The notes beneath the pieces were generated by a model, which saw only the letters and a program-made list of their open reading frames with translations, did not search any database and had not been told where the DNA came from. Made by a program: the position numbers and the translations under genes. 64,000 nucleotides of DNA from Escherichia coli (GTDB lineage Bacteria > Pseudomonadota > Gammaproteobacteria > Enterobacterales > Enterobacteriaceae): assembly GCF_044324875.1 (NCBI RefSeq), contig NZ_CP172185.1, one strand, 5' to 3'. Positions 12,375 to 12,764 of this stretch are shown here, piece after piece; positions within the stretch are counted from its first letter, which is position 1, and the number at the start of each line of letters is the position of its first letter.

Positions 12375-12764
12375 ATGTAAATTATCAATAAAAGGCGTTA
12401 TTTTATAATTATTTATAATGAGTTGTGAGTGTTTATTTTATTACGGTTGGTAGAGATATACAAAAAGTATTTTTTTACAGTGGGTTCGCTATTTTAAAAA
12501 GGAATTCATATGAGGAAAAAATATAATTATGTTATTTATTGGCAGATTGAATTGACAGGGGGCAGAAATCTGAGGGTAAGAAAAGTCAGCAACTACAATC
12601 CACTACATCAACAGACCAGAAATCGCGTGCCGCGATACGCTGGAAATACCCGTAGATTGAACTGGCGGATGGTGTGACTGACATCGGTCAGTGATGACTT
12701 TTTAGCAAACTATGTTCGATCAGTCAGCATATTTGCTGACTGGTCGAATTGACTAACAATGATG

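Follow-up and report, generated by a model that had tools for sequence, protein, structure and literature searches.

A 55-codon open reading frame between yfbL and elaD of Escherichia coli is very probably an accidental out-of-frame reading of a decayed yfbK gene

The window analyzed here is a 64,000-nt stretch of Escherichia coli DNA (contig NZ_CP172185.1), and the region of interest is the 390-nt spacer between yfbL and elaD (12375–12764). Gene names follow those annotated in E. coli ETEC1738 (NZ_CP122768), whose spacer is 100% identical to that of the window. According to this annotation, the following genes are found around the spacer:

9273–10730, plus strand: nuoN
10797–11300, minus strand: yfbM
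11403–12374, minus strand: yfbL
12765–13973, minus strand: elaD
14164–15099, minus strand: rbn
15146–15607, plus strand: elaA

In K-12-type genomes, yfbL and elaD flank a plus-strand yfbK gene of 1728 nt. The spacer occurs as a single copy in E. coli genomes, with a median of one place per genome. Further upstream, yfbM directly follows nuoN in the window, with 66 nt between the two genes (10731–10796); the K-12 map presumably shows yfbN, yfbO and yfbP between yfbM and nuoN. Among the flanking genes, elaD is the most diverged from K-12 (95.1% identity). In ETEC1738 it is annotated by PGAP as “frameshifted”, a pseudo-CDS of 1223 nt (12765–13987 in the window), and likewise in L012, L014, L015 and L016. 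The window contains a 402-aa elaD reading frame at 12765–13973, compared to a 407-aa “ElaD/SseL family deubiquitinase” in other strains, and the frameshift therefore seems to be confined to an N-terminal extension.

Inside the spacer lies the short open reading frame that is the subject of this analysis:

12510–12677, plus strand: open reading frame of 55 codons (ATG at 12510, TGA at 12675–12677), translated as MRKKYNYVIYWQIELTGGRNLRVRKVSNYNPLHQQTRNRVPRYAGNTRRLNWRMV (55 aa)

The initial annotation had described this frame exactly as we find it, with the same translation, and had placed it in the gap that yfbK fills in K-12, in agreement with the synteny between yfbL and elaD. It had also pointed out a Shine-Dalgarno-like sequence, which is indeed present: the frame is preceded by AAAAAGGAA, with AAGGA (12499–12503) located 6 nt 5′ of the ATG. 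As outlined below, these are the inherited start signals of yfbK. The product, which includes the segments YNYVIYWQIELTGGR and VSNYNPLHQQTR, would be strongly basic, with 13 K+R against 1 D+E.

The length of the frame is no greater than expected by chance for the composition of the spacer. After dinucleotide shuffling of the 390-nt spacer, frames of at least 55 aa appeared in 29% (1451/5000) of the sequences if any start codon was accepted, and in 17% (832/5000) if only ATG was accepted; the 64-kb window as a whole holds 231 frames of 50–99 aa. For one given frame, a stop-free run of 55 codons at 42% G+C is somewhat long, which we counted against the reading as a remnant. A Pfam search with the 55-aa peptide (E up to 0.1) returned no family, and an exact look-up among about 15 billion proteins did not find the peptide. 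PGAP called no gene in the spacer of identical or near-identical genomes, including ETEC1738. The literature on yfbK mentions the gene only in passing, and among the titles and abstracts listed none addresses a remnant or small open reading frames.

Comparison with K-12 revealed the origin of the spacer. Megablast linked only 12655–12764 to K-12, and the homology of the 5′ part surfaced at a blastn word size of 7. The resulting alignment consists of three colinear segments between yfbL and elaD (E values of 9e-38, 0.006 and 1e-38). Positions 12375–12634 correspond to the 137-nt yfbL–yfbK intergenic region of K-12 followed by yfbK nt 1–132 (about 70% identity, with indels), 12635–12655 to yfbK nt 1456–1476 (19/21 nt matching), and 12655–12764 to the last 38 nt of yfbK and the 70-nt spacer to elaD (110 nt, 95.5% identity). 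In this alignment, the start codon at 12510 falls on the yfbK ATG and the Shine-Dalgarno sequence on that of yfbK, with AAAAGGAATTCAT opposite AAAAGGATTTTAT. The spacer can thus be divided as follows:

12375–12509, no strand: divergent yfbL/yfbK intergenic region, comprising the upstream region of yfbL and the former upstream region of yfbK, including AAGGA at 12499–12503
12510–12634, plus strand: remnant of yfbK nt 1–132 (codons 1–44; signal peptide, lipobox region and Q-rich linker), based on blastn, tblastn and three-frame translation
12635–12655, plus strand: island of yfbK nt 1456–1476 (codons 486–492, IRWKYPQ) between two deletion junctions
12656–12694, plus strand: last 12 codons of yfbK (564–575) and its stop, IELADGVTDIGQ, with TGA at 12692–12694
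12695–12764, no strand: convergent yfbK–elaD spacer containing a 16-bp hairpin (12714–12749), 95% identical to K-12

The first coding piece (12510–12634) was also checked in a five-way alignment of the window, K-12, L022, L020 and L007. Both tblastn with K-12 YfbK and translation of the spacer showed that the peptides GQKSEGKKSQQLQSTTSTDQ, IRWKYP and IELADGVTDIGQ match YfbK. Within 12510–12634, the ancestral reading passes from frame 12510 (MRK) to frame 12511 (GKNIIMLFIGRLN, ended by TGA and matching YfbK residues 3–14) and on to frame 12512 (GQKSEGKKSQQLQSTTSTDQKSRAA). In this last frame, GQKSEGKKSQQLQSTTSTDQKSRAA, IRWKYP followed by a stop, and IELADGVTDIGQ followed by a stop match YfbK residues 20–44, 486–491 and 564–575, respectively. 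The stop after IRWKYP is the TAG at 12653–12655, which stands in place of the Gln codon 492 of yfbK (CAG to TAG).

About 1.54 kb of the gene is missing, namely nt 133–1455 and nt 1477–1689, encoding residues 45–485 and 493–563. Further lesions in the remnant are two frameshifts and an in-frame TGA, and the lipobox (LSGC) codons are destroyed by a 5-nt gap. We found no intact signal peptide with a lipobox in frame with the start codon, since the frame is shifted after codon 3 and then interrupted by the TGA. K-12 YfbK carries the domains vWF_A (PF12450, E = 7e-33), VWA (PF00092, 4e-22) and YfbK_C (PF12034, 6e-66), none of which is left in the remnant, as the DNA encoding them is deleted and the 55-aa frame has no Pfam match. 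With YfbK pieces in three frames and colinear homology to the 5′ end, the interior and the 3′ end of the gene at the syntenic position, the spacer is thus a pseudogene of yfbK. The 55-codon frame begins at the yfbK start codon, shares only MRK with YfbK, leaves the YfbK frame after about codon 3 and continues out of frame over both deletion junctions; its TGA precedes the genuine stop of yfbK by 17 nt. The initial annotation had left open whether the frame encodes a real small basic protein or is a remnant; the homology to yfbK supports the latter.

An inverse history, which would start from the short allele and have the K-12 lineage acquire yfbK by insertion, with the spacer being plain intergenic DNA, is almost certainly wrong. 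It could draw on the frequency of the short allele, present in about half of E. coli genomes, and on the low identity of the 5′ part to K-12 (about 70%). However, an insertion cannot yield 5′, internal and 3′ coding pieces of yfbK in the right order and orientation that translate to YfbK peptides, and the internal IRWKYP island together with the N-terminal coding homology refutes this history. Moreover, a differently deleted yfbK with an intermediate 5′ end, found in a relative, suggests that the progenitor was a diverged yfbK allele.

This relative came from a DNA-pattern scan with one genome per species. Escherichia sp. MOD1-EC7003 (L022) has a yfbK 5′ end of the K-12 type. An Escherichia genome under the title E. 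coli SCPM-O-B-8794 (L020), which represents a species of its own in GTDB, is about 90% identical to the window. Its yfbK (7430–7695) has another internal deletion, independent of those in the window, which joins codon ~41 to codon ~527; elaD is absent, and the yfbK remnant, with a different C-terminus, …IGLVEGLNNSQN followed by the stop, has its own downstream hairpin and is followed by rbn. The 5′ end of the L020 gene is intermediate, being 73% identical to K-12 and to the window alike. With about 67–70% identity to K-12, the 5′ part of the window's remnant is much more diverged than the flanking genes (95–98%). The 5′ end of the remnant is of the QQQQSTTSTDQQ type, as in L020, and the motif QQQSTTSTDQQ is common to both. 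The intermediate 5′ end and the shared motif suggest a diverged yfbK allele as the most likely ancestor of the remnant. As L020 and the window carry different deletions, loss of yfbK most likely happened more than once within Escherichia.

The remnant is widespread, occurring in about 45% (2447/5426) of complete E. coli genomes, among them O157:H7, O145, O121 and B/BL21 strains. In about 1620 genomes, the match to the spacer is confined to the part from 12655 onward; among the matches listed for this group, yfbK is annotated in 12 of 12. A further 1227 of the 5426 genomes have no megablast match to the spacer, nor to the conserved 110 nt of the yfbK 3′ end and hairpin, so that a third arrangement of the locus must exist. 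Most E. coli genomes with the remnant also have a yfbL annotated as frameshifted (yfbL 5′ ends of L004–L009 and L011); over the first 270 nt, these copies differ by about 12%, plus indels, from the intact yfbL of the window. The yfbK–yfbL neighbourhood is decaying across much of E. coli.

To assess frame conservation, 16 further alleles of the remnant, taken from complete E. coli genomes, were compared with that of the window. The state of the frame depends on a homopolymer:

12515–12521, plus strand: A-run just 3′ of the start codon, GGAAAAAAT, whose length varies by allele and sets the frame that is read

Besides the window allele, six of the 16 others, at 97.9–100% identity, keep the 55-codon frame intact (L012, L013, L014, L017, L018 and the identical L001). 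The frame is broken in 11 of the 16, where the orthologous start yields 5–17 aa. Two of the broken alleles, L015 and L016, are 98–99% identical to the window and have one A fewer in the A-run; they read MRKNIIMLFIGRLN followed by a stop, which is the ancestral frame, soon terminated. In the nine alleles at 93–94% identity, the reading ends after 5–17 codons or has no ATG, the start codon being replaced by ATA in four of them and by GTG in two. In L010, the frameshift of the window is present together with an 11-nt deletion. Conservation of the frame in close relatives, on which the initial annotation had made its proposal depend, is thus lacking among alleles with homologous DNA: a slip of a single nucleotide abolishes the frame at 98–99% identity, and none of the nine distant alleles has it.

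These data bear on the idea that the frame encodes a genuine lineage-specific small basic protein, a young gene that arose from the pseudogene and uses the old yfbK promoter and ribosome-binding site. The retained ATG and Shine-Dalgarno sequence, the intact frame in the window and six alleles of at least 97.9% identity, and the strongly basic peptide would fit such a gene. We nevertheless regard it as highly improbable. The frame is broken by a one-base slip in alleles that are 98–99% identical and is missing from all distant ones, no family match or protein call has ever been made for it, and its length is at chance level. Its distribution is also narrow: identity of at least 99% over 12480–12654 is reached in only 45 of the 5426 genomes, suggesting that at most about this number can carry the frame. 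The substitutions among the intact alleles comprise one synonymous and two non-synonymous changes (R37S and R53W), and these three in-frame substitutions are too few for dN/dS. A related proposal would be that of a proto-gene, in which a slip of the A-run in an ETEC1738-like clade placed a novel basic peptide behind a still functional yfbK promoter and ribosome-binding site, with the A-run acting as an on/off switch between alleles; to this we give very little credence.

A different candidate for a functional unit is a mini-frame of 44–47 aa in the ancestral frame, VQKSEGKKSQQ...IRWKYPQIELAGGVTDISQ, that is, a miniaturised YfbK. In some E. coli genomes, PGAP annotates a “hypothetical protein” of this size (e.g., WP_254911077.1 and WP_153645574.1) on the same strand of the same remnant DNA; it follows the ancestral YfbK frame (phase of 12512), unlike the 55-codon frame with the phase of 12510. 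The mini-frame is open and annotated in L002 and L009, such proteins form a cluster of 13, one of which occurs on at least 1000 contigs, and the two deletions measure 1323 and 213 nt, both multiples of three, so that the YfbK frame continues through both junctions. However, in the window it is interrupted by the TAG at 12653–12655, and among the 17 alleles (the window and the 16 others) it is open to the yfbK stop only in L002 and L009, while it is truncated or absent in the others. The annotated versions use a GTG start, have lost the signal peptide and lipobox and contain neither a vWA nor a YfbK_C domain, and the remnant alleles are polymorphic for nonsense mutations and indels. The label “hypothetical protein” is no evidence of function, and a miniaturised YfbK appears very unlikely.

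On the opposite strand, we observed an antisense frame of 32 aa (MSVTPSASSIYGYFQRIAARDFWSVDVVDCSC, 12586–12684, minus strand), which is open in 10 of 10 alleles listed (32–40 aa) and has no Shine-Dalgarno sequence. The differences among alleles in this indel-free stretch are amino-acid changes (Y/F/C, A/S, F/C, S/C and T/P), and the frame is probably not a gene.

Beyond the yfbK stop, the spacer contains a palindrome that the initial annotation had located at about 12722–12745. The element is real, and its size had been understated: the hairpin has 16 pairs, formed by 12714–12729 with 12734–12749. A 71-nt stretch including it folds with −28.2 kcal/mol on the plus strand (z = −6.4 against shuffles) and with −23.1 kcal/mol on the minus strand (z = −5.3). 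K-12 has kept the hairpin, likewise 3′ of the yfbK stop, where yfbK and elaD converge. The stem is followed by no U-tract on either strand, and it is therefore not a canonical intrinsic terminator; a scan for the terminator consensus did not report 12714–12749 either. We infer a putative 3′-end structure, of the terminator type or conferring stability, for yfbK and elaD transcripts. It is unrelated to the 55-codon frame. The sole terminator-like match in the spacer is a weak 6-bp stem at 12677–12692, within the C-terminal codons of yfbK. Promoter-like sites were found at the frequency expected from shuffles (3 versus 2.8), including a sigma-70-like site on the plus strand (12382–12409, 10/12 matches), and a scan of 11000–15500 against Rfam 15 (E up to 1) gave no match in the spacer.

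We also considered a repeated element, as the peptide RRLNWRM is shared with a 36-aa frame near rbn. This was rejected as a chance match, given a dozen equal pairs in the 5-kb region and the single-copy spacer. The shared peptide of these two junk frames is explained by an inverted match (I1) between 12649–12678 and 14180–14209 (77% over 30 nt), which pairs the C-terminal codons of yfbK (IELADGVT) with those of rbn on the opposite strand (TELANDFT).

Taken together, we consider the 55-codon frame to be an accidental out-of-frame reading of the decayed yfbK pseudogene and not a conserved small-protein gene, with a probability of roughly 93%. In the history we propose, two internal deletions took out nt 133–1455 and 1477–1689 of yfbK, and small indels and a nonsense mutation then disrupted the rest. 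The frame begins at the inherited yfbK ATG and Shine-Dalgarno sequence; directly behind the start codon, an indel in the A-run shifts reading into a non-ancestral frame, which by chance meets no stop for 55 codons and so spans both deletion junctions. The homology, the order of the yfbK pieces, the relations between the frames and the polymorphism of the 55-codon frame are direct observations, and from them we infer that no functional protein is made; with the inherited ATG and AAGGA at a spacing of 6 nt, a junk peptide might still be translated to some extent.

As an accidental reading and not a conserved gene, the finding is an ordinary one. It carries little biological weight beyond documenting a zone of ongoing gene decay at yfbK/yfbL in Escherichia. 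A well-formed small frame with an ATG, a good Shine-Dalgarno sequence and 55 codons is fully explicable here as an out-of-frame reading of a remnant that has kept the start signals of its parent gene. This calls for caution in the prediction of small proteins, where ribosome-binding sites inherited from pseudogenes make spurious frames look convincing.

Compared to K-12 yfbK (b2270, a vWA lipoprotein of 575 aa), the remnant shares the position, strand, start codon and position of the Shine-Dalgarno sequence, as well as the last 12 codons, the stop and the downstream hairpin. Unlike the K-12 gene, it has lost about 1.54 kb, is only about 70% identical in its 5′ part, is frameshifted twice and contains stops. 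Spurious open reading frames in decaying genes are a general phenomenon in bacterial pseudogene remnants. Like typical remnants of this kind, the one in the window shows inherited start signals, homopolymer indels, presence/absence polymorphism within the species and decaying neighbours. By this comparison nothing about it is unusual, and it is an ordinary pseudogene remnant that does not amount to a distinct feature.
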